Positions 1 through 51,871 of a stretch of DNA of 64,000 nt are shown here, piece by piece. The notes beneath the pieces were generated by a model, which saw only the letters and a program-made list of their open reading frames with translations, was not told the DNA's origin and did no database searches. Origin of the DNA: Gammaproteobacteria bacterium (GTDB lineage Bacteria; Pseudomonadota; Gammaproteobacteria; Eutrophobiales; Eutrophobiaceae); the NCBI GenBank assembly GCA_965220815.1, contig OZ244846.1, positions 2,244,353-2,308,352 of the forward strand, written 5' to 3'. Each line of letters starts with the position of its first letter. Position 1 is the first letter of the stretch. The position numbers and the translations under genes are program-made.

Positions 1-82
1 CCATGAATTCATTTCATTTGCGATTTTTTTCAGGTCTGCGTAGAAGTATCTGTCCACAGGAATTTGCTCCATCGTTGGGTTG

Positions 83-307
83 CTACTCGGGAAAGCAGGT
101 GATTACATGTCCGCCACGGATACAGAAGGTGATTCCACCTTTCTTAATCTTAAAATTGGTATTACCAGCAATGTCAACTACCTGCCGCAATCTTGGTGTA
201 TTCAAGACATCTTCAAGATATTGGCGGAATCTTTCAGTATCGATTCCTTCGGCCCGTTCCATATATCGCAATAAGGCATGATCGGTGATTTTCATCGCTC
301 GTTTCAT
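83..307 (-). CDS. DUF4258-family small protein, 74 aa, putative toxin-like partner of the upstream XRE protein
   Basis: Intact ORF. The N-terminal motif ITDHALLRYMERAEGI resembles the DUF4258 signature (H-A-x-x-R-M-x-E-R-G-I). A 4-nt ATGA overlap couples it to the upstream gene. Locally AT-rich. Confidence 0.55.
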   Translation of the reverse strand: MKRAMKITDHALLRYMERAEGIDTERFRQYLEDVLNTPRLRQVVDIAGNTNFKIKKGGITFCIRGGHVITCFPE

Positions 308-1257
308 GACTCATCTCCTTTAATAAATTTCTCAAGGAGGTTCTCAAAACGCTCGCGTTCTTCCATAATCTCGCGGGTCTTGTCACTCAGCTTATTTTCA
401 AGCCAATCGATCCGCCTGTCCCTGGCCTGTTTTGCCATGAGTTCCCTGGGAATGTCAGATAGGCGTACATCGCCATGCTCCAAGGCCCATCGGGCATACT
501 TGGAATCGCCGGAGATTTCGTTTAGCTCGTTTCGGCAAATCTGGTAGGGTTCAGTTCCCCAGGGATCATCGGCAACACCAGAGCCGAAATCGACAATGCC
601 GGAGATTCCAAGATCTTTCGAAAATTTACATAAGTAATCCGCGAACGGCGTGACCTCGTACAAGGCTTCATCAGCAAAATCCAGGTTAGCGTCGTCCCTG
701 TTTCTCAACGTATCACCTCGGAGGTCAGCGGCCTCAATGGATTCTTTTTCAGCCCAGAAACCACACTCAATGTTTCCCTGATAATACGTAAAGTAAAGAT
801 GACTCCATTTTTTGCCAAACGCACTTAAACGGTCCATAGCCTCCTCTACCTCGTCAACGTACTGACGACGCCAGGCGAGACTGCCCTCGGCCAGCAACAC
901 GAAAAGGAGAGGCGCCAGATTAATGATATCCCTTTGGCTCGCACCGTAGCGATGCTTCACCAAATCGTATGCGAGCCGCACTTGAGGACTGGTCCTGGTA
1001 CCGAGTTGGATATCAGCATTCGTTTGAGGGACTGGCTGGACAGGATCAAGAGGTTTGTTACCAACAAGTATTTCCCTGTCAACTTTCAATGCACCGGCCA
1101 GCCGGATAACCGTATTTTCGCGTACAGTTACACTTGTCTTTGAGTCCTCGATACGCGCAATTTGCCTTGCTGAAACTTTCGAGTTATCGGCAAGTTTCTG
1201 TCGAGACCACCCTTTCTGGCCCCGCAATGCTTTCAGACATTCTGGGTTGATGTTCAT
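304..1257 (-). CDS. XRE-family helix-turn-helix protein with a ~230-aa C-terminal domain of unknown function, 317 aa
   Basis: The N-terminus (LRGQKGWSRQKLADNSKVSARQIARIE) is a classic HTH_XRE. The remainder has no recognisable HEXXH or other catalytic motif. Translationally coupled to the DUF4258 gene. Confidence 0.6.
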   Translation of the reverse strand: MNINPECLKALRGQKGWSRQKLADNSKVSARQIARIEDSKTSVTVRENTVIRLAGALKVDREILVGNKPLDPVQPVPQTNADIQLGTRTSPQVRLAYDLVKHRYGASQRDIINLAPLLFVLLAEGSLAWRRQYVDEVEEAMDRLSAFGKKWSHLYFTYYQGNIECGFWAEKESIEAADLRGDTLRNRDDANLDFADEALYEVTPFADYLCKFSKDLGISGIVDFGSGVADDPWGTEPYQICRNELNEISGDSKYARWALEHGDVRLSDIPRELMAKQARDRRIDWLENKLSDKTREIMEERERFENLLEKFIKGDES

Positions 1258-1344
1258 AAACTTACCTCAATTGTTGATATAAAGCTTTTCAGCCTTTTTA
1301 CTCGACACTGGGTAAATAATAACGCTATTTTTTCATAAAATAAT

Positions 1345-1362
1345 ATGACATTAATGTGTCAT
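1345..1362. promoter_or_regulatory. Inverted repeat ATGACA-TTAATG-TGTCAT in the AT-rich region upstream of the XRE-DUF4258 operon, candidate autoregulatory operator
   Basis: Palindrome seen directly in sequence, about 100 bp upstream of the XRE start at 1257. The surrounding 1258-1400 is very AT-rich and promoter-like. Confidence 0.3.
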
Positions 1363-1535
1363 TTCATCAATATTGTACTATTGATTATGCCATATCATGC
1401 CATTTAATAAAGACTAACTGCTCGTACTTCCATCTTAAATTGCAGACGACAGTCACGAAGGGCAAGTGGGCGGCTCAATGGCTTCTTCTCCCTGGACTTC
1501 AACATCCAGGAATATGCTTCGCCGGAACGAAGTGA

Positions 1536-1680
1536 ACCGTTACTTCGGATTACTCCAAAATCTGGATAAATCCGTCGCGGTTGGGCATTTTGACGTCGGC
1601 GAGGGTGTCGGCGTAGGGCCAGAAAGTGCCGATGGTTTTCTCCTGCCATTCGTCTGTGAGTTGCATGAGATACTTTATCT
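1536..1680 (-). pseudogene. Degenerate partial duplicate of the 3' end of the sorB cytochrome c gene, with an internal deletion of about 130 nt
   Basis: Nucleotides 1536-1590 are near-identical to 2350-2400 (TTACTTCGGATTA.TC.AAAATCTGGATAAA.CCGTCGCGGTTGGGCAT). Nucleotides 1610-1680 match 2540-2620 (GGCGTAGGGCCAGAA.GTGCCGATGGTTTT.TCC.GCCATTCGTC.GT.AG.TGCAT). The reverse translation gives MQLTDEW.EKTIGTFWPYA...MPNRDGFIQIL, which is the SorB C-terminus missing its middle. Confidence 0.6.
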
Positions 1681-1776
1681 TCATTATCAGGAGGGTGCGT
1701 TAGACTGGGTAGTCTGACCCGATACTATATGTGCATTGTGCGACCTGACCCCATTTGTGCACTATGAATTGATGTA

Positions 1777-2073
1777 TTACTGCTGGATATATCGCTGAAT
1801 ATCCAAAGCGCCGTGAAATACGCCAAGAATCTCAACCAGATCAGGTTTTACCAGATAAGCTATTCTGTAATGTCCATAAAGCAGAATGCGTATCTCGCCA
1901 TCGACTTCGTCTTTGTATTGATATCCTATCTTCGGAAAGACCTTAAGTACTTGTGCTTTCTCATATATTCCTTCAACTACCTTTTGGGCTGCAACAGGAT
2001 TATCTTCCGATATGTATTCATAAATATCCGACAACCATGCCGCCGCCTCTTCTGTCCATCTTATTTCTGCCAT
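1777..2073 (-). CDS. Type II toxin, RelE/ParE family, 98 aa
   Basis: Size, position downstream of a small antitoxin ORF with overlap, and RelE/ParE-like sequence (…RILLYGHYRIAYLVKPDLVEILGVFHGALD…). Confidence 0.75.
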   Translation of the reverse strand: MAEIRWTEEAAAWLSDIYEYISEDNPVAAQKVVEGIYEKAQVLKVFPKIGYQYKDEVDGEIRILLYGHYRIAYLVKPDLVEILGVFHGALDIQRYIQQ

Positions 2074-2246
2074 GCGCTTATCCTGCGCTTCATCTCCTCA
2101 TCTGAGATTGTTCTGCCTTCCCGAGAATCCTCCAGTCCCCTCGCGATCATTTGTTCAAATGCAAGCTCTCTGAGTATTTCATCGTAAGATGAGTCCTCCG
2201 GCTGAGCCTGGATTAGTTCAGTCATTCTTTCTTTTACAACGGACAT
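2061..2246 (-). CDS. Small antitoxin (addiction-module antidote family) paired with RelE/ParE, about 61 aa
   Basis: Small acidic ORF (MSVVKERMTELIQAQPEDSSYDEILRELAFEQMIARGLED…EEMKRRISAWQK) overlapping the toxin start. The track ORF extends to 2315, but the internal ATG at 2246 gives the typical size. Confidence 0.55.
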   Translation of the reverse strand: MSVVKERMTELIQAQPEDSSYDEILRELAFEQMIARGLEDSREGRTISDEEMKRRISAWQK

Positions 2247-2358
2247 GAATAATGGCTGTTCAGTTAGTGAGCACGGCTTCAATGAACTTGAAGTCTCATT
2301 ATAACGGAAAATCAAAAAACCATATAGCTTGTCCGTTGTTTGGAGCAGTTACTTCGGA

Positions 2359-2898
2359 TTAATCTAAAATCTGGATAAAACCGTCGCGGTTGGGCATCCT
2401 CACATCAGCAAGAGAGGCAGCGTTCATCTCCTGGTCTTCCGGGATGATCTCATTCAGGTAAAGCAGGTAGGCAGTGATCGCATACACTTCGGAGTCGGTC
2501 AGGTTGCCCGGTTGCATCATGGGCTTGGAGCGGCGGATGAAATCAAACAGGGTGGGGGCGTAGGGCCAGAAGGTGCCGATGGTTTTTTCCGGCCATTCGT
2601 CGGTAAGCTGCATTTGCGCGCCGGCAAGCTGGTCGCCGCTGTCACCGAGGCCGCCGGGGCCGTGGCAGGACAGGCACAACCTGTCATAGATAGCTCTGCC
2701 CTGCTCTGCCGTGCCGCTGCCTTCGGGGAGGCCGGCGCCGTTCGGCATGATGCCCCAGTCCTGGCTGCTGACGGCGCGGCTGTCCGCCGGCTCGCCCAGG
2801 TCCGGGCCGGGAGTTGGCTCACCGGCGCCGGGACTAATCCCAGTCAGCATCAATACTGACGTCAGTACCAGACTGCTTCTGTTCGGCATCATAAACAT
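2359..2898 (-). CDS. sorB: Sulfite dehydrogenase cytochrome c subunit (SorB-like monoheme cytochrome c)
   Basis: N-terminal signal peptide and a single CLSCHGPGG heme-binding motif. Lies immediately downstream of, and overlapping, the molybdopterin subunit gene. Start uncertain (several in-frame Met). Confidence 0.7.
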   Translation of the reverse strand: MFMMPNRSSLVLTSVLMLTGISPGAGEPTPGPDLGEPADSRAVSSQDWGIMPNGAGLPEGSGTAEQGRAIYDRLCLSCHGPGGLGDSGDQLAGAQMQLTDEWPEKTIGTFWPYAPTLFDFIRRSKPMMQPGNLTDSEVYAITAYLLYLNEIIPEDQEMNAASLADVRMPNRDGFIQILD

Positions 2899-4147
2899 GG
2901 GTCACGTCACCGTATTCATCCACGCTCCAGGTGACGATGGCGTTGTAATGGTAAAAACCCTGCCTGCCCCGTTCGGCAAGAAGTTGTTCCCGTTCCGGTT
3001 GCACATATCCCGTCTCGTCAACGGCCCTGCTTTGCAATATGGCCGGCGACCCGTCCCATTGCCAGGGTATGCGGAAACGGGTAAACGCCTTGGGCAGCAC
3101 CGGGTCCTGCAATTCCGCCGGCGCCCAGGTCTTGCCGCCGTCAGCGGAGACGTCCACCTGTTTTATCCGTCCCCGGCCGCTCCAGGCCAGGCCGGTGACC
3201 TGGTACAGTCCCGGCCCCTGTTTCAATACCATGCCGCCTGACGGAGAAGTGATCAGTGATTTTGCCTCCATGGTGAACGTGAACATACGCGCCTTGCCGG
3301 AGGGCAACAGTTCGGTGTACCGCGCCGTTTCGTTCCTTGCCATGATGGGTTTCTCCACGGCCTTCAACGCCCGCAACCATTTCACGTTCAATACGCCCTC
3401 CCAGCCCGGCAGGATCAGGCGCAACGGGTAGCCGTTCTCCGGTCTCAGGCGCTCGCCGTTCTGGTACAGGGCCAGGATTGCATCGTCCATGGCTTTTTCG
3501 ATAGGTACGCTGATATTCATGGCAAAGGCGTCCGCGCCGTCCGCAATCAACCATTTGGCTGATTCTTCGATACCTGCCTCTGCCAGTACGGTCGCCAGCG
3601 GCACGCCGGTCCACTCACTGCATGAAACCAGGCCGTGAAAATAGCCGGCCTCCGCACGGGAGGGGGTTTTATTCCAGCCCGCGTTGCTGTTGCCGCCGCA
3701 CTCGACAAAACAGATCTGTGAACGCATCGGGTAACGCAACAGGTTGTCGATGCTGAAAAATGCCGGTTGGCGCACCAGGCCGTGCACCAGCAGACGGTGT
3801 TCATCAGGATTGATTTGCGGCACCCCGTTATGGTGCCGTTCGTAATGCAGGCCGTTCGGGGTGATCATGCCTTCCAGCCGATGCAGCGGCGTCCAGGAGG
3901 CGCCGTTGTTGCGCAATACCCGGTTCGGCGCCGGATAACGGACTACATCCTCTTCAAATTGCGCCGGTTGTCCATAAGGCGTAAACGGCTCACCCGGTAC
4001 GCTCATCGACTCGGGTCTGGCCGCTGCAGCCTGAACGTTACCCGCCACCAGTTGGGCGGTCCCCAGCGCGACGCCGCCCTGCAGGAACAGGCGCCGGTCC
4101 AGCAGACCGTTGCCGGCAACGGGGGTCAAGGGCGGAATGTTTTTCAT
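2834..4147 (-). CDS. sorA: Sulfite:cytochrome c oxidoreductase molybdopterin subunit (SorA/SUOX family), Tat-secreted
   Basis: Twin-arginine motif RRLFLQGG at the N-terminus. Moco-binding sulfite oxidase family sequence and dimerisation domain over 437 aa. Confidence 0.85.
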   Translation of the reverse strand: MKNIPPLTPVAGNGLLDRRLFLQGGVALGTAQLVAGNVQAAAARPESMSVPGEPFTPYGQPAQFEEDVVRYPAPNRVLRNNGASWTPLHRLEGMITPNGLHYERHHNGVPQINPDEHRLLVHGLVRQPAFFSIDNLLRYPMRSQICFVECGGNSNAGWNKTPSRAEAGYFHGLVSCSEWTGVPLATVLAEAGIEESAKWLIADGADAFAMNISVPIEKAMDDAILALYQNGERLRPENGYPLRLILPGWEGVLNVKWLRALKAVEKPIMARNETARYTELLPSGKARMFTFTMEAKSLITSPSGGMVLKQGPGLYQVTGLAWSGRGRIKQVDVSADGGKTWAPAELQDPVLPKAFTRFRIPWQWDGSPAILQSRAVDETGYVQPEREQLLAERGRQGFYHYNAIVTWSVDEYGDVTHVYDAEQKQSGTDVSIDADWD

Positions 4148-4157
4148 GTCTTTAATG

Positions 4158-4274
4158 ATTTATCCGCAGATGACGCAGATTAACGCAGATAAAATAATAG
4201 TTATTATTTATCATAAATGTCGTTAATAAAATCTGAAAAAATATCTGCGCTAATCTGCGTCATCTGCGGATAAA
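4158..4274. repeat. 32-bp near-perfect inverted repeat (TTTATCCGCAGATGACGCAGATTAACGCAGAT / reverse complement, 31/32 matches) flanking a 52-bp AT-rich spacer, between the prmB stop and the sorA start
   Basis: Read directly. Each arm contains three GCAGAT/CGCAGAT submotifs. The spacer itself holds a mini-palindrome AAATAATAGTTATTATTT. Both flanking ORFs read into the arms and acquire the same DLSADDAD C-terminal artefact. Confidence 0.7.
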
Positions 4275-5137
4275 TCAACCTCGCTCGTTATAACAAAAAC
4301 ACCTTCCCCCCCATGCTCAAAGTCAAGCCAGATGAAAGGAGTACGGGGATATTTCGTCTCAAGCGCAGCGCGGCCGTTACCGACTTCCACTACCAGGATA
4401 CCGTGGGGCGTTAGATGCTCGTGGGCATTGAGCAATATATTATCTACCACGTCCAGGCCGGTGGCGCCCGCCGCCAGGGCAAGGGACGGTTCATGCCGGT
4501 ATTCAGCCGGCAATGCCGCCATTTCCCCATCGGTTACATACGGCGGATTGCAGACAATTATATCATACCTGCTGCCTCCCAATGCGCTGAACAGGTCTGA
4601 TTCGACCAGGTTTACCCGCTGTCCCAGGCCGTGTCTTTCACAATTGATGCGCGCCACTTCGAGCGCATCCGGACTGATGTCCGTTGCATCGACAATCGCG
4701 GTGGGAAAGGCCAGGGCACAGGCGACGGCAATACAACCGCTGCCGGCGCCCAGGTCCAGGATGCGCGTTACATCCGGGGCCTTAATCCAGGGTGAGAACC
4801 TGTCACGGACCAGTTCGGCAATGGGTGAGCGGGGGACTAGGACGCGCTCGTCCACGTAGAACGGCAGGCCGGCAAACCAGGCCTTGTTGAGCAGGTAGGC
4901 CGTGGGCTTCCTGGAGCTGATCCTTTCGTCCACCAGTGCCCTGATACGCTCCTGGTCAGTTGTGCTTAATTCTCCGTTCAATTGTTCCTGGTTAAGGTCA
5001 AACGGCAAGTCCAGCGCACCTAACACCAGGTATGCGGCCTCATCCAGGGCGTTATCGGCGCCGTGGCCGAAAAACAGGTCCGACCGGATAAACTGTTGCT
5101 CGGTCCAGTCAATAAGTTGTCGGGGGGTAGTAAACAT
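4250..5137 (-). CDS. prmB: Ribosomal protein L3 N5-glutamine methyltransferase (PrmB, HemK family)
   Basis: SAM-binding motif DLGAGSGCIAV and the NPPY catalytic motif (IIVCNPPYV). Length 295 aa. The C-terminal tail probably reads artefactually into the inverted repeat. Confidence 0.8.
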   Translation of the reverse strand: MFTTPRQLIDWTEQQFIRSDLFFGHGADNALDEAAYLVLGALDLPFDLNQEQLNGELSTTDQERIRALVDERISSRKPTAYLLNKAWFAGLPFYVDERVLVPRSPIAELVRDRFSPWIKAPDVTRILDLGAGSGCIAVACALAFPTAIVDATDISPDALEVARINCERHGLGQRVNLVESDLFSALGGSRYDIIVCNPPYVTDGEMAALPAEYRHEPSLALAAGATGLDVVDNILLNAHEHLTPHGILVVEVGNGRAALETKYPRTPFIWLDFEHGGEGVFVITSEVDLSADDAD

Positions 5138-5179
5138 GAAAACTTTGCATTACCTGTATAGAGCGCATACACTATCACA

Positions 5180-5251
5180 ATGGACGTTGAATGGGACCCG
5201 GCCAAGTACGGCTTATCTCTGCACGTCGTGCTACGAAACTTGAGCGTAATG
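5180..5251 (+). pseudogene. Remnant of a BrnT-type toxin gene (only about 24 codons, MDVEWDPAKYGL…)
   Basis: The N-terminus matches the BrnT start (xVWDxxK) but runs straight into the brnA reading frame. The toxin body is absent. Confidence 0.4.
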
Positions 5252-7070
<1,819 letters not shown>

Positions 7071-7236
7071 GTTGAAAAAGGAAAAGAGCATTACTTCAAA
7101 GAGCTACATTAAAAAAGGATTCACTATTACTGAAAACAGCCACGAACCGTGTCAGTACGAGCAAACGGGTAACGCTGGCCTTGTCTGCCGCCGGTCTGGC
7201 ATCCAGGCCTACATTAAGGAAATGGTGGATACGCTA

Positions 7237-7272
7237 TTGACTTTCAAGTGACTGGTCAGATATACTAGTCAC
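7237..7272 (+). promoter_or_regulatory. Putative sigma70 promoter (TTGACT, 18-bp spacer, TATACT) overlapping a GTGACT-N13-AGTCAC inverted repeat immediately upstream of phd
   Basis: Read directly. The palindrome abuts the ATG at 7273, consistent with antitoxin autoregulation and a short or leaderless mRNA. Confidence 0.4.
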
Positions 7273-7512
7273 ATGGAAACAATCAATGCATCTGACTTCA
7301 AGGCCCAGTGTCTGGCAATTCTCGACCGCGTGCAAACGACGGGTGAACGCGTGGTTATTTTGAAGCGCGGTCGCCCGGTTGCTGAATTATTGCCTGCGAG
7401 TCGAGCCCGTTCCGAATATCCGCAGTTGGAACTGGAGGGCACTGTCACGGTGCTGGGTGATATCATGGAACCGGTTGTTCCGGAAGAACATTGGGACAGT
7501 CTTCGTCAGTGA
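7273..7512 (+). CDS. Phd/YefM-family antitoxin, 79 aa
   Basis: Sequence METINASDFKAQCLAILDRV…ILKRGRPVAELLP is typical of Phd/YefM. Precedes and overlaps a PIN toxin gene. Confidence 0.8.
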   Translation: METINASDFKAQCLAILDRVQTTGERVVILKRGRPVAELLPASRARSEYPQLELEGTVTVLGDIMEPVVPEEHWDSLRQ

Positions 7513-7907
7513 GCGTTCTTCTTGATACACACGTGTTGCTCTGGTGGTTGAATGACCGTGCCCGACTCTCGGCAGCGCAACGGGATTTCGTTAATGCAGT
7601 CGATAGCAAATCCCCGTTGCTGGTATCCGACATCTCACTCTGGGAGGTAGCCATGTTGCATAGTCTGGGGCGTATCCAGCTGCTGATTCCATTACGAGAG
7701 TGGCTGGACAAGGCAGCAGCGCCGCCACTGGTGCAACGCTATGGCATCTCTCCTGCCATCGCGGCAGAAGTGGCCGCGCTACCTGCCTCGTTCCACAGAG
7801 ATCCGGCAGACCGGATCCTGGTCGCGACCGCCCGGGTTCTCGGCGTTACGCTCCTGACACAGGACCACAGGATCATCGACGCGGCGCTGGTCGATACCGT
7901 GAGTTAA
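7509..7907 (+). CDS. vapC: VapC-type PIN-domain toxin
   Basis: PIN acidic residues ([10 protein letters not shown]…, …LVATA…TQD). A GTG start at 7509 overlaps the phd stop (GTGA). The track's in-frame ATG at 7491 is the alternative. Confidence 0.75.
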
Positions 7908-7912
7908 CCCCA

Positions 7913-8974
7913 ATGTCAGGTAATACTATTGGAAAATTATTTACGGTAACCAGTTGTGGCGAGAGCCACGGCTACGGTTACCTGTGCATTGTCGACGGCT
8001 GCCCGCCGGGAATGGAACTGTGTGAATCGGACCTGCAGCATGATCTCGACCGGCGCAAGCCCGGCAAGTCCCGCCATGTCACCCAGCGCCGGGAGTCCGA
8101 CAAGGTGAAGATCCTGTCCGGCGTATTCGAAGGCAGGACGACGGGAACGCCGATCGGACTGCTGATTGAGAACGAAGACCAGCGCTCCAAAGATTATTCA
8201 GCGATCAAGGATAAGTTCCGTCCCGGTCACGCCGATTACACCTACTGGAAAAAATACGGTGTGCGGGATTACCGGGGCGGCGGCCGCGCCTCCGCCCGGG
8301 AGACCTGTATGCGGGTGGCAGCCGGCGCGATTGCCAAGAAATACCTGCATGAGCAGTTCGGCTGCCTCATACGCGGCTACCTGGCGCAACTGGGGCCGGT
8401 CAGCCTGGAGTTGAAGGATTGGAACGAGGTGGATAACAACCCGTTTTTCTGCCCGGATGCCGGCAAGGTCGAAACCCTGGAAAAGCTGATGGATGATTTG
8501 CGGAATTCGGGCGATTCCATCGGCGCGCGGGTGAACCTGGTCGCCACCGATGTCCCGGTGGGCCTGGGAGAGCCGATCTTCGACCGTCTCGATGCCGACA
8601 TCGCCAGGGCGCTGATGAGTATCAATGCCGTGAAGGGCGTGGAAATCGGCGACGGCTTCCGTGTGGTCGAGCAGCGCGGCACACAACACAGGGACGAGAT
8701 CAGCGCGAAGGGCTTCCTGTCCAACCACGCAGGCGGCACCCTGGGCGGCATCTCCAGCGGCCAGGATATCCTGGCGAGTATCGCGCTCAAACCGACGTCA
8801 AGTATCCGCATCCCCGGAAAGACCGTGGACATCCACGGCGATGAAACGGAGATCGCCACCACCGGACGCCACGATCCCTGTGTCGGCATCCGCGCCACGC
8901 CCATCGCTGAAGCGATGCTGGCGCTGGTGCTGATGGACCATGCACTCAGGCAGCGCGCGCAGAACCCGGATTGA
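7913..8974 (+). CDS. aroC: Chorismate synthase
   Basis: [20 protein letters not shown]… and full-length similarity to AroC. The start is the internal ATG of the longer track ORF (7700). Confidence 0.9.
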
Positions 8975-9021: not shown

Positions 9022-10794
9022 CTAACTTACAGGTTTTTCAAAAGTAATAACGATGTAATCTACGGATGGTTTCCTGCCGTCTTTCATACCGAAGCTAAAG
9101 GGCAATTCCGCCCAGCGGCCGGATTTGTTGTCGATATTACGCAAGGCCGCCAGTCCGCCGGCGTTCTCCAGGGTTTCCACGAACCAGGGGCAGACTACCT
9201 CACCGGCTTCCAGCAACTCGATAATAGTTTGGCGAGTCGCCAGGTCCGGCGCCCCGGGCACTGCCCGGAAGAGGTTGAAAAGTAATTTTTTGTGCCATCC
9301 TGTATACGCTTTTTCGTCCACTACGAAGCGGATCTGGCGCGGGGCCGCCATCTGCACAAAAGGCCAGAGAGTCCTGCGCAGACGTCTCCCCCTCATCAAC
9401 ACCCCACCCGTGTCGGGAAAATTCTTGAAGCCTTCCACTGTCAGGTGATACGTCTCGCCAAGCATCATGGTCATGAGCAGCCGCACCAGGGACTGCGGCA
9501 GTTTATACACCGTGTATACCGCTCCGCCCAGGGCAACAACCGTCAACAGCGGAAACAGCAGATTGCTGATACCCCTCATGGAAAACAGCACGGTCAGCAC
9601 CAGGAAGCTCAGCATTACCACGTTCTGGATGAGGCTGTTGCCCGCGAGTACCCTGCCCAGGATGCGTTCGCCCGCGTGGAACTGGATCAAGGCGTTGAGC
9701 GGGATGATGAACAGGCCGCTGAGCATGCCCAGCAGCAGGATATTGATGGCGTGGGCCGGTACGCTGTTGAGCCCCGGCAGGATGAACAGGCACACAGCCA
9801 CCCCTACCGCGCCGATCGGTATCAGGCCGATCTCGATATAGTTTTTCGAGATCCTGCCGGCGATAAGGGAGCCCAGCATGATGCCGATACCGGCGCAGGC
9901 CAGCGTGCCCTGGATAATCCTGACGTCGGTTACACCCAGGTTGTCTTTGGCAAAAGAAGGATACGCCGCCAGCAGCACCTGGCCGATAGACCACATAATT
10001 GCCAGCCCGATGATGGACAGCAATATCACCTCGCGGGACCTGACCGCGTTCAGGTTTTCGGCAAGGTAACGGCCGGTGCGGTATTTGACCCAGTCAAAGC
10101 GCAGGTTCTTGTCCGGTTCATGCACGGTGGGCAGGCGGCAGGACAGCATCAGCTCCACCAGCGCGCCGGCGATCAGGAACCAGCCGGTAGCCTTGATGGC
10201 GAGCATCACCTCCTCCTTGGTGGAAAAAACCACGTCGGCCAGGAACATCTCGAACGAGATTGAAAATGCGAAGGTGCCGGTGAGGATGGCGGTGGTTGTG
10301 GTTGCCTGCACCACGCCGTTGGCGCGCGCCAGCCGTTCCTTGCCGGCAATTTCCCTGATGTAGCCGTACTTCGCAGGTGAGTAAAACGCGCTTTGCACCG
10401 CCAGCAGGAACGTCATGGCAAACGCGGCCCAGAACCATCCCAGGTGGTAGAACAGGGTAATCAGGCTGGTGAGGACGACGGCGCCCCAGGCGGTGGTGCG
10501 CATCACCCTGTTTTTCGGGAACTTGTCCGCCAGGAAACCGGCGGGGGTGAACAGCAGGATGAACGGCAGCAGGATCAGGGCGTTGACGATGGCCGTCAGA
10601 ATAATCAGGGCATCGCCCTCGTAGGTCTTGAAAACGGTATTCTGTATGGTGATCTTGTGCCCCAGGTCCACGAAGGCGTTCAGGAACAGCATACAGACAT
10701 AGGGAAAAAAGCCCCGGATTTTGAACAGGTCACTCATGCCACTGTGGGGATAATGGGGTCCGTCCCCTGCAAGAAACTCATGTAAACGTTCCAC
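9022..10794 (-). CDS. MFS-family transporter (12 predicted TM helices, LplT-like) with a ~150-aa hydrophilic C-terminal extension
   Basis: Hydrophobic helices throughout residues 30-440. The C-terminal 150 aa are soluble and unassigned. The N-terminal start is uncertain. Confidence 0.6.
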
Positions 10795-19113: not shown

Positions 19114-19176
19114 ATCTGCTCCCTCTCGCCATTCCCGCGATGCCGGGTCAAGCCCGGCATGGCGAACCTGATTGCA

Positions 19177-19220
19177 GGGGTCAGAGTAAGAAATTCTGCA
19201 AGAATTTTTACTCTGACCCC
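19177..19220. repeat. REP family 1 copy (GGGGTCAGAGTAAGAAATTCTGCAAGAATTTTTACTCTGACCCC)
   Basis: 44-bp palindrome between recJ and prfB. First of five copies in the window. Confidence 0.8.
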
Positions 19221-19242
19221 AAATATCGTAAAATCTGACCTT

Positions 19243-21832: not shown

Positions 21833-21839
21833 GACAGGT

Positions 21840-21882
21840 GGGGTCAGAGTAAGAATTTCGCCAGAAATTTTACTCTGACCCC
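21840..21882. repeat. REP family 1 copy
   Basis: GGGGTCAGAGTAAGAATTTCGCCAGAAATTTTACTCTGACCCC directly after the lysS stop. Confidence 0.8.
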
Positions 21883-22018
21883 TTATTTCAAAGTGCAACT
21901 TTCCCATATATGGAAGGTCTATCATAGTGTTATACTGCAATTGTGAAGCAAAGCGCACCCGCGGCGCGCAGGACTTTCATAAACAGACATCATCAATCCA
22001 AGTCAGGAGGTATCACTC

Positions 22019-46906: not shown

Positions 46907-46931
46907 CAGGCACAGCCTGGGGATTGATCCT

Positions 46932-46974
46932 GGGGTCAGAGTAAGAATTTCGTCAGAAATTTTACTCTGACCCC
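46932..46974. repeat. REP family 1 copy
   Basis: GGGGTCAGAGTAAGAATTTCGTCAGAAATTTTACTCTGACCCC upstream of, or within the 5' end of, dctP. Confidence 0.8.
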
Positions 46975-47201
46975 ATATATCAAGTATTGTCTCCCCGAAT
47001 TTCATGTCCCCGGAATTACGCTTGCAACCCATGCAATATAACAGTAAATTGGAAAATCCGCATACGGGTACACACTAGACAGCGCCGGAGAAATGAAACC
47101 AGCCGAATACATTTCCTGTGACGGACTCGGCCGCGCCCTGGCCGTTGAATGCGCCGTTGCCTGAACAACGGTAGAATGTCTGTGAGGACTTACGTCGCAG
47201 G

Positions 47202-50569: not shown

Positions 50570-50592
50570 TTAATTTCTCCGCATGTCTTAAA

Positions 50593-50617
50593 GGGGACGG
50601 ATTTCAAATCCGTCCCC
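50593..50617. repeat. REP family 2 copy (GGGGACGGATTTCAAATCCGTCCCC)
   Basis: Adjacent to REP1 copy 50634-50676. Two different REP families in tandem. Confidence 0.8.
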
Positions 50618-50633
50618 GTCGAACCCTGATGTC

Positions 50634-50676
50634 GGGGTCAGAGTAAAATTTCTGGCGAAATTCTTACTCTGACCCC
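50634..50676. repeat. REP family 1 copy
   Basis: GGGGTCAGAGTAAAATTTCTGGCGAAATTCTTACTCTGACCCC. Confidence 0.8.
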
Positions 50677-50677
50677 A

Positions 50678-51871
50678 TCAATCTTCGTTCCAGGGCGCCC
50701 ACATTTCCTTCAGGTCTTCCCAGGCAGGTTCTTCTTCCCCGCCCGGTTGAAACCGGCAGCCCTCGTGTTCATAAAACGGCCTGGTCCACGCGCCCCGCTC
50801 GACCAGGGATGCGATATTCCGGCGGTAGATCTCGTCAACCTCCGCATGGTGTTGCGGGTCCTGCTCCATCCACAGGTTTTTCGGGTGGATGGGTTTTTCG
50901 TACATGCGTTTGAACACCTCGGTGCGCAGGTCCTTCAGCCAGTTGCTGTTCAGGTTCATCATGCGGAACTGGCGCAGGGCTTCGATGTCGATGGTGGCGC
51001 ACACCAGAGTGTTGTTGGCAGACGGGCTGTAGGACATGATCTCGCCGCGGTAATCGACGATATGGGCATGCCCGCCGGTAATGTCCACCGGGTTTCTGGA
51101 CGTGGCCGACAGGTAGAGCGGGCCGGCATTGGGACACAGCATGTACACCGAATTGAACTCCGCGTGACCCCGGTTCTGGACCATCCAGGAACCGCCGCCG
51201 GGATAGCCGGAGCCGGTCATGGGCATGGCCTCGCTGGGCCGGTACACCACCTCGGCGCCGTTGAACGCCAGCGCCCGCACCGCCTCCGGGTATTCGCCGT
51301 CGCTGCAGCAGATGGTGCCTATGTTGCCGATATCCGGGGTTTTCAACACCGGGTAGAAGGCATCGATGTCGTCGCCATGGACCTCCACCCAGCGGTCGTA
51401 GACGTCGTGAGGGGTACAGGAGCGTTCCCGGCACCAGATATGGTTTTTTGCCGCCTTGTGCACCACGTTGCCGCCGGGATCAATAACGAACAAGGTGTTG
51501 AAGAACCGGTCGTCCATGACCTCGGGCCAGCGCGCCTTGCACTGGCCGATGATATAGGTGTCATAGAGCGCGGCCAGGCGCCCGAGCCAGGCGGTCTCCT
51601 CGCCGGGGATATCGATGAACAGTTCCCTGGCAGCGAGGACGTGGGGCAGGTCGAAGATCTCGTCGGTGAAGCCCGTCAGCGCGCCTTCCGCCAGGGCGAT
51701 GATCTTCACCGGCATATTGATGTTCACCATGGAGACCGCGGCATGGATCGCCTCTTCGATATTTTCCAGGTTATGGCGGATATGCTTCCGGTCGGCTATC
51801 CCCGTGATCGTCGTGGACAGGCCGATAGCCATGTAGGGAGCGACAGGTTTGTTCTGTTGTTCAGTAGTCAT
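50678..51871 (-). CDS. Nitrilase-superfamily carbon-nitrogen hydrolase / amidase-like protein with a C-terminal extension
   Basis: Catalytic-triad segments (…ALAEGAL…, …KNHIW…, …GTICCSDGEYPE…). 397 aa. Confidence 0.7.
   Translation of the reverse strand: MTTEQQNKPVAPYMAIGLSTTITGIADRKHIRHNLENIEEAIHAAVSMVNINMPVKIIALAEGALTGFTDEIFDLPHVLAARELFIDIPGEETAWLGRLAALYDTYIIGQCKARWPEVMDDRFFNTLFVIDPGGNVVHKAAKNHIWCRERSCTPHDVYDRWVEVHGDDIDAFYPVLKTPDIGNIGTICCSDGEYPEAVRALAFNGAEVVYRPSEAMPMTGSGYPGGGSWMVQNRGHAEFNSVYMLCPNAGPLYLSATSRNPVDITGGHAHIVDYRGEIMSYSPSANNTLVCATIDIEALRQFRMMNLNSNWLKDLRTEVFKRMYEKPIHPKNLWMEQDPQHHAEVDEIYRRNIASLVERGAWTRPFYEHEGCRFQPGGEEEPAWEDLKEMWAPWNED

Follow-up and report, generated by a model that had tools for sequence, protein, structure and literature searches.

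A displaced copy of a cytochrome gene end flanks a toxin–antitoxin cassette behind a SoxC-type sulfite dehydrogenase operon

We analysed a 64,000-nucleotide stretch of DNA from an uncultured gammaproteobacterium (‘the window’; GenBank assembly GCA_965220815.1, contig OZ244846.1, forward-strand positions 2,244,353–2,308,352; GTDB family Eutrophobiaceae), in which a sulfite dehydrogenase operon is followed by a small toxin–antitoxin (TA) cassette and then by a second, degenerate copy of the end of the operon's cytochrome c gene. Working along the minus strand, on which all of the relevant genes lie, the order can be written as A, H, insert, H′, B, where H comprises the last 255 nt of the cytochrome gene plus 11–16 nt beyond its stop codon. 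As the initial annotation had it, the TA pair sits exactly between the two gene-end copies; this is seen both here and in a second occupied locus, L023 (loci compared with the window carry L numbers throughout).

2834–4147 (−), molybdopterin subunit of sulfite dehydrogenase (‘sorA’ of the initial annotation), SoxC-type; Pfam Oxidored_molyb and Mo-co_dimer
2359–2898 (−), intact monoheme cytochrome c subunit gene (‘sorB’ of the initial annotation), 179 aa; Pfam Cytochrom_C / Cytochrome_CBB3
2343–2613 (−), intact upstream copy of the duplicated segment, Met codon to stop plus 11–16 nt; alignment, repeat search, self-BLAST
2317–2342 (−), linker from the left junction, J1 (about 2342/2343–2347), to the cassette core; comparison with relatives
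1770–2316 (−), core of the mobile TA cassette (promoter-like −10 box, operator-like palindrome, antitoxin, ParE); cross-context identity
2277–2303 (−), TATAAT box (2298–2303) and perfect palindrome CTTCAA-N5-TTGAAG (2277–2293); read from the sequence
2061–2246 (−), candidate antitoxin, 61 aa from the ATG at 2246; position, 13-nt overlap with ParE
1777–2073 (−), ParE/RelE-family toxin, 98 aa; PF05016 ParE_toxin, 56.7 bits (cut-off 23), E=3.8e-15
1667–1769 (−), right arm brought in with the cassette; common in full only to L019 (to ...GTATCTCATG)
1730–1752 (−), REP/REPIN-like (REP, repetitive extragenic palindromic) 23-mer GGGGTCAGGTCGCACAATGCACA in the right arm; repeat comparison
1534–1666 (−), displaced copy of the cytochrome gene end, a 5′-truncated, internally deleted pseudogene fragment; alignment, repeat search, self-BLAST
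1602–1614 (−), junction of a 138-nt in-frame deletion (13-nt imperfect direct repeat); repeat search, sequence comparison
1439–1533 (−), native post-cytochrome-gene sequence of relatives, here after the fragment; L031 and L030 alignments, colinear with L007

The two copies of the gene end

It had been proposed that about 140 nt at 1536–1680 reproduce the end of the cytochrome gene, minus an internal stretch of about 130 nt; the copy is real, its limits can be sharpened to 1534–1666 against 2343–2613 (81–88% identity), and the stretch absent from it measures 138 nt. A repeat search of the window returns two direct-repeat blocks, 1534–1614 against 2343–2423 (81 nt, 81%) and 1602–1666 against 2549–2613 (65 nt, 88%), whose best cores in a self-BLAST of the window rise above background (50 nt at 94%, E=2.6e-15; 45 nt at 93%, E=2.5e-12), with no third copy found in the 64 kb. 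The blocks are spaced, start to start, by 809 and 947 nt respectively; from the difference it follows that the short copy has lost 138 nt, or 46 codons, in frame. They overlap each other by 13 nt at 1602–1614 (ACGCCGACACCCT), a sequence resembling both end points of the missing segment (ACGCCCCCACCCT in the intact gene; AACGCCGACACCCT in relatives); the stretch was deleted between these short direct repeats. The copies become homologous exactly at an internal Met codon (ATG at 2611–2613 and 1664–1666) and cease to be so 11–16 nt past the stop codon (TAA TCCGAAGTAAC...; MAFFT alignment). The fragment is without the CxxCH haem motif, as well as without the 46 internal codons, and cannot encode a cytochrome.

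The same structure is present in L023, an independent short-read scaffold from another sample that is 97.6% identical over window positions 2397–255, with scattered substitutions: both junctions and the deletion are shared, and the fragment (1534–1666) is identical. The two copies are 85% identical to each other in the window and 93% (109/117) in L023; by our own count, they differ by 11 synonymous as against 5 conservative codon changes. Compared with every sampled intact allele the fragment is 77–87% identical, rising to 93% for L023's own intact copy. An attempt to tell the native copy by allele similarity was dropped, 117 nt being too short to decide.

The site in relatives

In the reference-genome set, sampled at one genome for each species, we found 17 related loci, all from uncultured Gammaproteobacteria, several of which appear, judged by isolate names, to derive from sponge or coral metagenomes. 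All 17 have prmB, soxC and the cytochrome gene in common; none carries the cassette and none carries a second copy of the gene end. Downstream, aroC (chorismate synthase) is reached in all but L014, L017 and L018, often with vapBC before it, at a distance from the cytochrome gene that varies between 58 nt (L003) and 6 kb (L002). The intervening cargo, labelled mostly from open reading frame (ORF) translations, includes a PIN-like toxin with a small partner, ParD-like and RelE-like genes, a DNA methylase, a restriction-modification-like set, and a module of genes encoding a 317-aa helix-turn-helix (HTH) protein (HTH-317) together with 74-aa and 240-aa proteins; given this variety, the spot after the cytochrome gene is a hotspot for TA, restriction-modification and other variable genes.

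Cassette-free relatives also reveal which copy of the gene end lies in its original surroundings. L007 (8476–10013) aligns without interruption to window 1614–77 (1552 nt, 83%), its intact gene running straight into the HTH module; window 1614–1439 matches L031 5470–5645 (176 nt, 88.6%), where the intact gene is followed by the sequence found here downstream of the fragment; and window 1607–1512 matches L030 436–531 (96 nt, 93.8%), in the same arrangement. L031 and L030 are the empty-site (uninterrupted) haplotype of the window's own species complex. Past the intact gene, likeness to relatives ends 11–16 nt after the stop; past the fragment, it runs on for at least 95 nt. Being colinear with the relatives' downstream DNA, the fragment therefore occupies the original position, with the intact copy and the cassette on the inserted side. 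This contiguity with the post-gene DNA of L031, L030 and L007, together with the degree of divergence between the copies (85% identity here, 93% in L023), speaks against the fresh, in-place duplicate suggested by the initial annotation. Up to J1 the soxC and cytochrome genes are 93–96% identical to those of relatives, and the locus is a recombination mosaic among the window, L023, L002 and L003.

Many relatives share a conserved motif after the stop codon of the cytochrome gene, GTAACTCACGTCATTCT, a 17-nt unit of which L013 (8550–8652) has 6.1 tandem copies at 100% identity. We considered whether this post-gene motif (GAAGTAAC..TCAC.TC.TTC.GG) might be a genome-wide repeat or att site, but it occurs once in the window; it is simply a conserved 3′ flank, tandemly amplified only in L013. 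A candidate inverted repeat around the HTH module (14 nt, TCCAGGAATATGCT; window 1505–1518 against the tail of L001) was also rejected, as a match by chance (E=0.036), because the tail of L001 is the reversed 3′ end of htpG.

Turning to the operon itself, the molybdopterin subunit scores 586.9 bits on the NCBIfam model TIGR04555 (sulfite_DH_soxC; cut-off 420) and, at 140.5 bits, falls below the SorA equivalog threshold (NF052245; cut-off 600). By these profile scores the catalytic subunit groups with SoxC-type sulfite dehydrogenases, not with SorA, making ‘sorAB’ a loose label. The cytochrome c subunit has 1041 homologues, the closest at 95%, and is 97% identical to L002 by tblastn. The cassette sits behind the last gene of the operon, at the hypervariable spot that precedes vapBC–aroC, and not inside the operon, as initially annotated; both operon genes are intact, and the biology of the sulfite dehydrogenase is thus unaffected.

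On the far side of the fragment lies the resident HTH module:

304–1257 (−), HTH-XRE gene, 317 aa; domain match
83–307 (−), 74-aa gene next to the HTH-XRE gene; ORF

This pair is conserved (window 83–1257, L001 1424–2146, L006, L007 8845–10969, L023 10206–11380), lying directly after the intact cytochrome gene in L007 and ~210 nt past its stop in L006; the 240-aa protein joins it in the window's lineage (via L001) and in L007, and is missing from L006 and L023. No family beyond the HTH domain was found for the module, nor any PADLOC system match, and we regard it as a candidate uncharacterised TA or defence module resident in the hotspot.

The block running amidohydrolase–prmB–soxC–cytochrome gene–cassette–HTH module is inverted with respect to L002–L014. 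The inversion covers window 1–7125, with one junction near 7110–7125; vapBC–aroC (7236–8974) here comes after the amidohydrolase gene, not the cytochrome gene, and at its far end the block meets the 3′ end of htpG, which is reversed. One junction is confirmed by L015, the other by L001 (2231–2292) and L031 (5645–5707). L015 (CAYOEQ010000169.1) is titled ‘uncultured Enterobacteriaceae bacterium’; it is 94–97% identical to the locus and has the lineage-specific inversion junction, and its taxonomic label is probably wrong. Elsewhere, the AT-rich gap between prmB and soxC contains a 53-nt inverted repeat (4156–4208 / 4225–4277; 83% complementary, 16-nt spacer), one arm of which is 100% conserved in L003 and L004 and which could have a regulatory role or be REP-like. 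Between the 3-HAO gene and prmB lies a BrnA-type antitoxin ORF (5180–5506, +) whose N-terminus (MDVEWDPAK...) looks, from its residues, like the fused remnant of a BrnT toxin; as the ORF is found in L002 and L006 and missing from other relatives, this is a second small variable TA spot.

The cassette and its other contexts

The toxin of the cassette exceeds the curated ParE/RelE family threshold in PF05016, and scores 18.9 on TIGR02385 (RelE_StbE), under its cut-off of 27.9. Its partner is less easily classified: the candidate antitoxin matches a RelB/ParD model only below threshold (NF050811, E=0.006, 16.8 bits where 60 are required), has no Pfam match at E<=1 and, as the best antitoxin in a comparison with the PDB, shows a weak hit to RelB (E=0.86); a match to a WD-40 repeat protein (E=0.042) was set aside as irrelevant. 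Alternative extents for this gene are 84 aa, for an ORF read mechanically from a TTG at 2315, and 61 or 73 aa according to gene callers. The TATAAT box and palindrome are here taken as the putative promoter and operator of the cassette; a simple promoter scan did not call the box, there being no −35 match within the core. On this reading the ATG at 2246, giving 61 aa, is the likely start. In 12 loci antitoxin and ParE are conserved as one unit, the partner always accompanying the toxin. No RNA genes emerged when the region was scanned for Rfam families and tRNAs.

That the pair is a foreign insert, as first supposed, is borne out by its absence from all 17 relatives, by a GC content of 41–47% in the cassette region as against ~60% in the operon, and by the presence of the identical ParE in unrelated contexts. 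Thirty-eight index blocks of the assembly collection list this protein; at least 23 contigs carry it, among which we inspected ten cassette contexts. Window 2316–1770 recurs at 97.4–99.4% nucleotide identity in L019–L028 and L032, and at 85%, with the same core end points, in L033, placing the cassette in at least seven other chromosomal contexts; the neighbourhoods of L019–L022, L024–L028 and L032 are unrelated. It directly follows, and abuts the 3′ end of, tRNA-Ser in L019; comes after NAD synthase in L020; lies beside a sigma-54 regulator in L021, between a peptidase and a POR-family gene in L022, and upstream of bamD–petABC in L024, L026 and L028; and in L025 is near GmrSD- and DUF4258/DUF2283-domain genes, the adjacent L027 region encoding DruA, methylase and restriction-enzyme domains. 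L022 belongs to the same 4.53-Mb chromosome as L012, whose soxCD is ~81% identical to that of the window; a near-identical cassette despite this divergence indicates that species boundaries have been crossed recently.

The ends of the cassette are ragged. On the left, 0, 15 or about 50 extra nucleotides are held in common, whilst on the right six ends are seen, at 1770, 1754, 1749, 1746, 1730 and 1664. The linker (2317–2342) is not common to the post-gene sequence of any relative; we considered it as a possible part of the cassette, but by an eye count it is only ~60% like the left flanks of L021 and L024. A repeat search found no inverted repeats bracketing 1667–2342, the right arm (1660–1790) folds no better than shuffled sequence (z=−0.46) and thus offers no hairpin, and inspection found no attC core sites at the cassette boundaries. 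The cassette encodes the two TA proteins only, with neither transposase nor integrase; no recombinase gene lies between the repeats or adjoins the cassette in the ten other contexts. As the window ends ~1.5 kb past the fragment, some small probability of a larger, composite integrase-borne island is left. Looking further afield, we found no ParE relatives in IMG/VR viral contigs, no match to the cassette DNA in PLSDB plasmids and nothing in two exact-pattern scans of JGI metagenomes; a P0009 lookup returned only two short contigs, with AraC or nothing as neighbour.

One of these contexts echoes the arrangement in the window. In L022 a truncated copy of the 3′ part of the neighbouring POR/DUF6537 gene flanks the cassette, which has the opposite orientation: 9523–9571 and 9567–9597 copy positions 10466–10514 and 10726–10756 of the gene (region 9515–9597 against 10458–10756), with an in-frame 216-nt deletion between 10-nt repeats. 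The fragment is missing the final 23 codons of the gene and adjoins a 20-nt patch of similarity. No flanking duplicates of at least 30 nt were found in L019, L020, L021, L024–L026 or L032. As separate observations, the cassette in L032 lies near the same POR/DUF6537 gene in a different arrangement, and L019 has tandem repeats of about 82 and 72 nt (9337–9670) directly upstream of the tRNA-Ser that adjoins its cassette.

The REP-like 23-mer (GGGGTCAGGTCGCACAATGCACA) occurs once in the 64-kb window. It is multi-copy in L020 (4646–4731 and 9660–9744), L024 (1869, 2671–2805, 7941) and L028, often as inverted pairs 40–90 nt apart, and is also present in L002 (8575–8597), L021 and L025. A role as the recombination site of the cassette was rejected: the 23-mer lies on the right side in some contexts and on the left in L020 and L026, is missing from the arm in L020, L026 and L027, and does not flank the Y1 transposase of L023. 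We regard it as a separate small repeat with its own insertion/deletion polymorphism. Another palindromic family (~45–50 nt) is found at window 19171–19227, 21839–21883, 46931–46981 and 50592–50683, with 90–95% identity to copies on both strands of L020, L021 and L024.

Origin of the duplication and comparison with known systems

Taken as a whole, the duplication is a recombination scar of an ordinary sort, lying in a hotspot of a known type, though unusually well documented. The insertion or recombination footprint initially proposed stands in so far as there is a scar at the right-hand junction of the insert; it is not a cassette-encoded target-site duplication: the cassette carries neither transposase nor integrase, shows no terminal repeats or attC-like hairpin, and has ragged ends.

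The explanation that we favour, and whose chance of being correct we judge to be about even, is that the old gene end was displaced by recombination that was homologous on one side and illegitimate on the other, or by an equivalent single crossover with a circle. The incoming segment would have carried a complete gene end (to 11–16 nt past the stop) and a 676-nt stretch made up of linker, parDE-like cassette and right arm. On one side, homologous recombination would have taken place within the soxC/cytochrome genes; on the other, an illegitimate joint would have connected the end of the arm (...CTCATG) to the internal ATG of the resident gene through 3 nt of microhomology, with duplication of the gene end resulting because this joint fell 271 nt upstream of the point at which the donor insert began. 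The old gene end would thereby have been pushed 0.95 kb away, whilst still joined to its native downstream DNA (the post-gene motif and the HTH-317 / 74-aa module). Such an event would constitute homology-facilitated illegitimate recombination (HFIR) with a donor of the form soxC, cytochrome gene, cassette; a Campbell-type single crossover of a ~0.95-kb (947-nt) circle bearing the gene end and cassette would give the same product. The haem-less downstream copy would later have lost its 138 nt by slippage between the 13-nt repeats. More widely, the recombinase-free cassette spreads as ragged-ended fragments into chromosomal sites that are mostly just past gene ends, and is probably retained because its loss would be toxic.

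Several observations are consistent with this scheme. The right junction, J2 (1666/1667), shares nothing beyond the ATG between the gene and the arm, which continues differently in L019; as in HFIR, one flank is homologous to the recipient and the other joint lies at a few nucleotides of microhomology. Moreover, with mostly synonymous differences between them, in a locus that is itself a mosaic, the copies look like two alleles of a working gene. The duplication, its junctions, the colinearity with uninterrupted relatives and the promiscuity and ragged ends of the cassette are shown directly and agree with the scheme too, whereas the route itself, the order of events and retention by addiction are inferences. 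Saying this, a number of points weigh against it. The donor haplotype, with intact gene, cassette and normal downstream DNA but no fragment, was not found in the ten contexts inspected among at least 23 contigs, and the experimental products in the original HFIR reports are said mostly to delete, rather than duplicate, recipient DNA. The two copies in L023, at 93%, are not clearly beyond the alleles of the species complex (94–96%), which would allow duplication in place, and L022 repeats the layout of gene, cassette and truncated, internally deleted copy, a case that hints at a duplication intrinsic to the cassette's first insertion. The scheme, finally, would require competence or conjugation in an uncultured host.

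Some of these points lend credit to a different, if rather unlikely, origin: a duplicative primary insertion by replication-coupled template switching (microhomology-mediated and break-induced-replication-like), in which synthesis would leave the gene 11–16 nt past the stop, copy the cassette and re-enter 271 nt upstream, in a single event and in place. It would account for the recurrence of the architecture, with the same cassette and an in-frame (216-nt) deletion, at the unrelated L022 locus, for the mere 3 nt of microhomology at J2, for the closeness of the L023 copies and for our failure to see a donor haplotype lacking the fragment; it sits less well with most other contexts, which have no flanking duplicate of at least 30 nt, with window copies that are only 85% identical and differ mainly at synonymous positions, and with the missing last 23 codons and 20-nt patch of the L022 fragment, from which further rearrangements in its history follow. 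Site-specific integration, with the gene end as attachment site and the fragment as an att repeat within a tandem array of cassette and HTH-module elements, seems to us very improbable. Direct repeats of the gene end do flank the cassette, a conserved post-stop motif of 25–35 nt is found in many relatives (six times over in L013) and the L019 cassette abuts a tRNA-Ser 3′ end; yet there is no integrase in or adjoining the cassette, its ends are ragged, only a single copy of the motif is present in the 64-kb window, the repeat extends over 271 nt from a 5′ boundary at an arbitrary internal codon, and no second gene-end copy is found in the sequence compared of L007, where the HTH module follows the gene, or of L031, which is uninterrupted.

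We think it more improbable still that the cassette has a third expressed gene, rather than a scar, in the 44-codon ORF at 1550–1684 (−), which reads MKIKYLM followed by the gene tail. Its reading frame is kept through both the junction and the deletion, and a called gene in L019 begins with the same MKIKYLM, but two independent in-frame events are expected by chance in one case in nine, the L019 gene continues into an unrelated RTX-repeat protein, no Shine–Dalgarno sequence precedes either ATG (CCTCCTGATAATG), and the product has no Pfam match and has lost the haem-binding motif. Least credible of all is a metagenome assembly artefact, in which two strain haplotypes have been stitched together: although short-read contigs do break close to the repeat (L001 begins at window 1480, and L015 stops at 2479), L023 has the same junctions and deletion in an independent assembly with scattered substitutions, and from this we conclude that an artefact is excluded and that the structure is inherited.

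What we have is a clear, well-resolved case of a known kind of event: a natural example, at base-pair resolution, of a recombinase-free TA cassette entering beside a working gene without destroying it. For comparison there are the empty sites (L031, L030, L007), the second sample in which the site is occupied (L023), and no fewer than seven other places where the same cassette has landed. A broader proposal, which we put forward with considerable reserve, is that the parDE-like pair is a recombinase-free selfish module, hopping by way of host illegitimate or template-switch recombination into sites mostly just beyond the ends of genes, and from one species to another among the Gammaproteobacteria associated with sponges and corals, with addiction fixing rare events; duplication of several hundred nucleotides of a 3′ gene end (two of about nine loci, each later worn down through in-frame loss between short repeats) would then be a recurrent signature of primary insertion rather than the mark of a one-off allele exchange. 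Should duplication be such a regular by-product, a possibility raised by L022, it would supply a usable bioinformatic signature of recombinase-independent gene gain.

How does the arrangement compare with known systems? It differs from an insertion sequence, transposon or miniature inverted-repeat transposable element in having no terminal inverted repeats, and in a flanking repeat that consists of 271 nt of gene sequence rather than a short target-site duplication. Chromosomal integrons, such as the Vibrio superintegrons, carry TA gene cassettes, and the unit described here resembles these in being small (about 0.55 kb) and compact, with many arrangements in variable arrays; unlike them, it has no attC-like hairpin, imprecise boundaries, no integrase that we could see, and its own −10 box and operator-like palindrome. 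Campbell-type insertion–duplication gives the same succession of intact gene, insert and 5′-truncated copy, and the 947-nt repeat unit equals the predicted circle, although this would be a laboratory analogy, no circular form or replicon being known for the cassette. In the manner of the core-gene-flanked defence hotspots of Pseudomonas aeruginosa (PMC10250203), the cytochrome gene and vapBC–aroC enclose changing cargo; by comparison with those hotspots the present spot is very small and TA-dominated, and the whole block has been inverted in this lineage.

A further parallel is offered by the arrays of type VI secretion system (T6SS) effector–immunity, Rhs and contact-dependent inhibition (CDI) genes, for whose orphaned 3′ gene ends HFIR has been invoked (PMC5361080, citing de Vries & Wackernagel 2002; Prudhomme et al. 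2002; Meier & Wackernagel 2003). The anchor here is a housekeeping respiratory cytochrome rather than a polymorphic toxin, the cargo is a TA pair, and the remnant is not tied to any immunity function that could favour its retention; in common with those arrays, the module is anchored by a conserved upstream gene, works without a dedicated recombinase, and has shifted the old gene end downstream as a truncated remnant.

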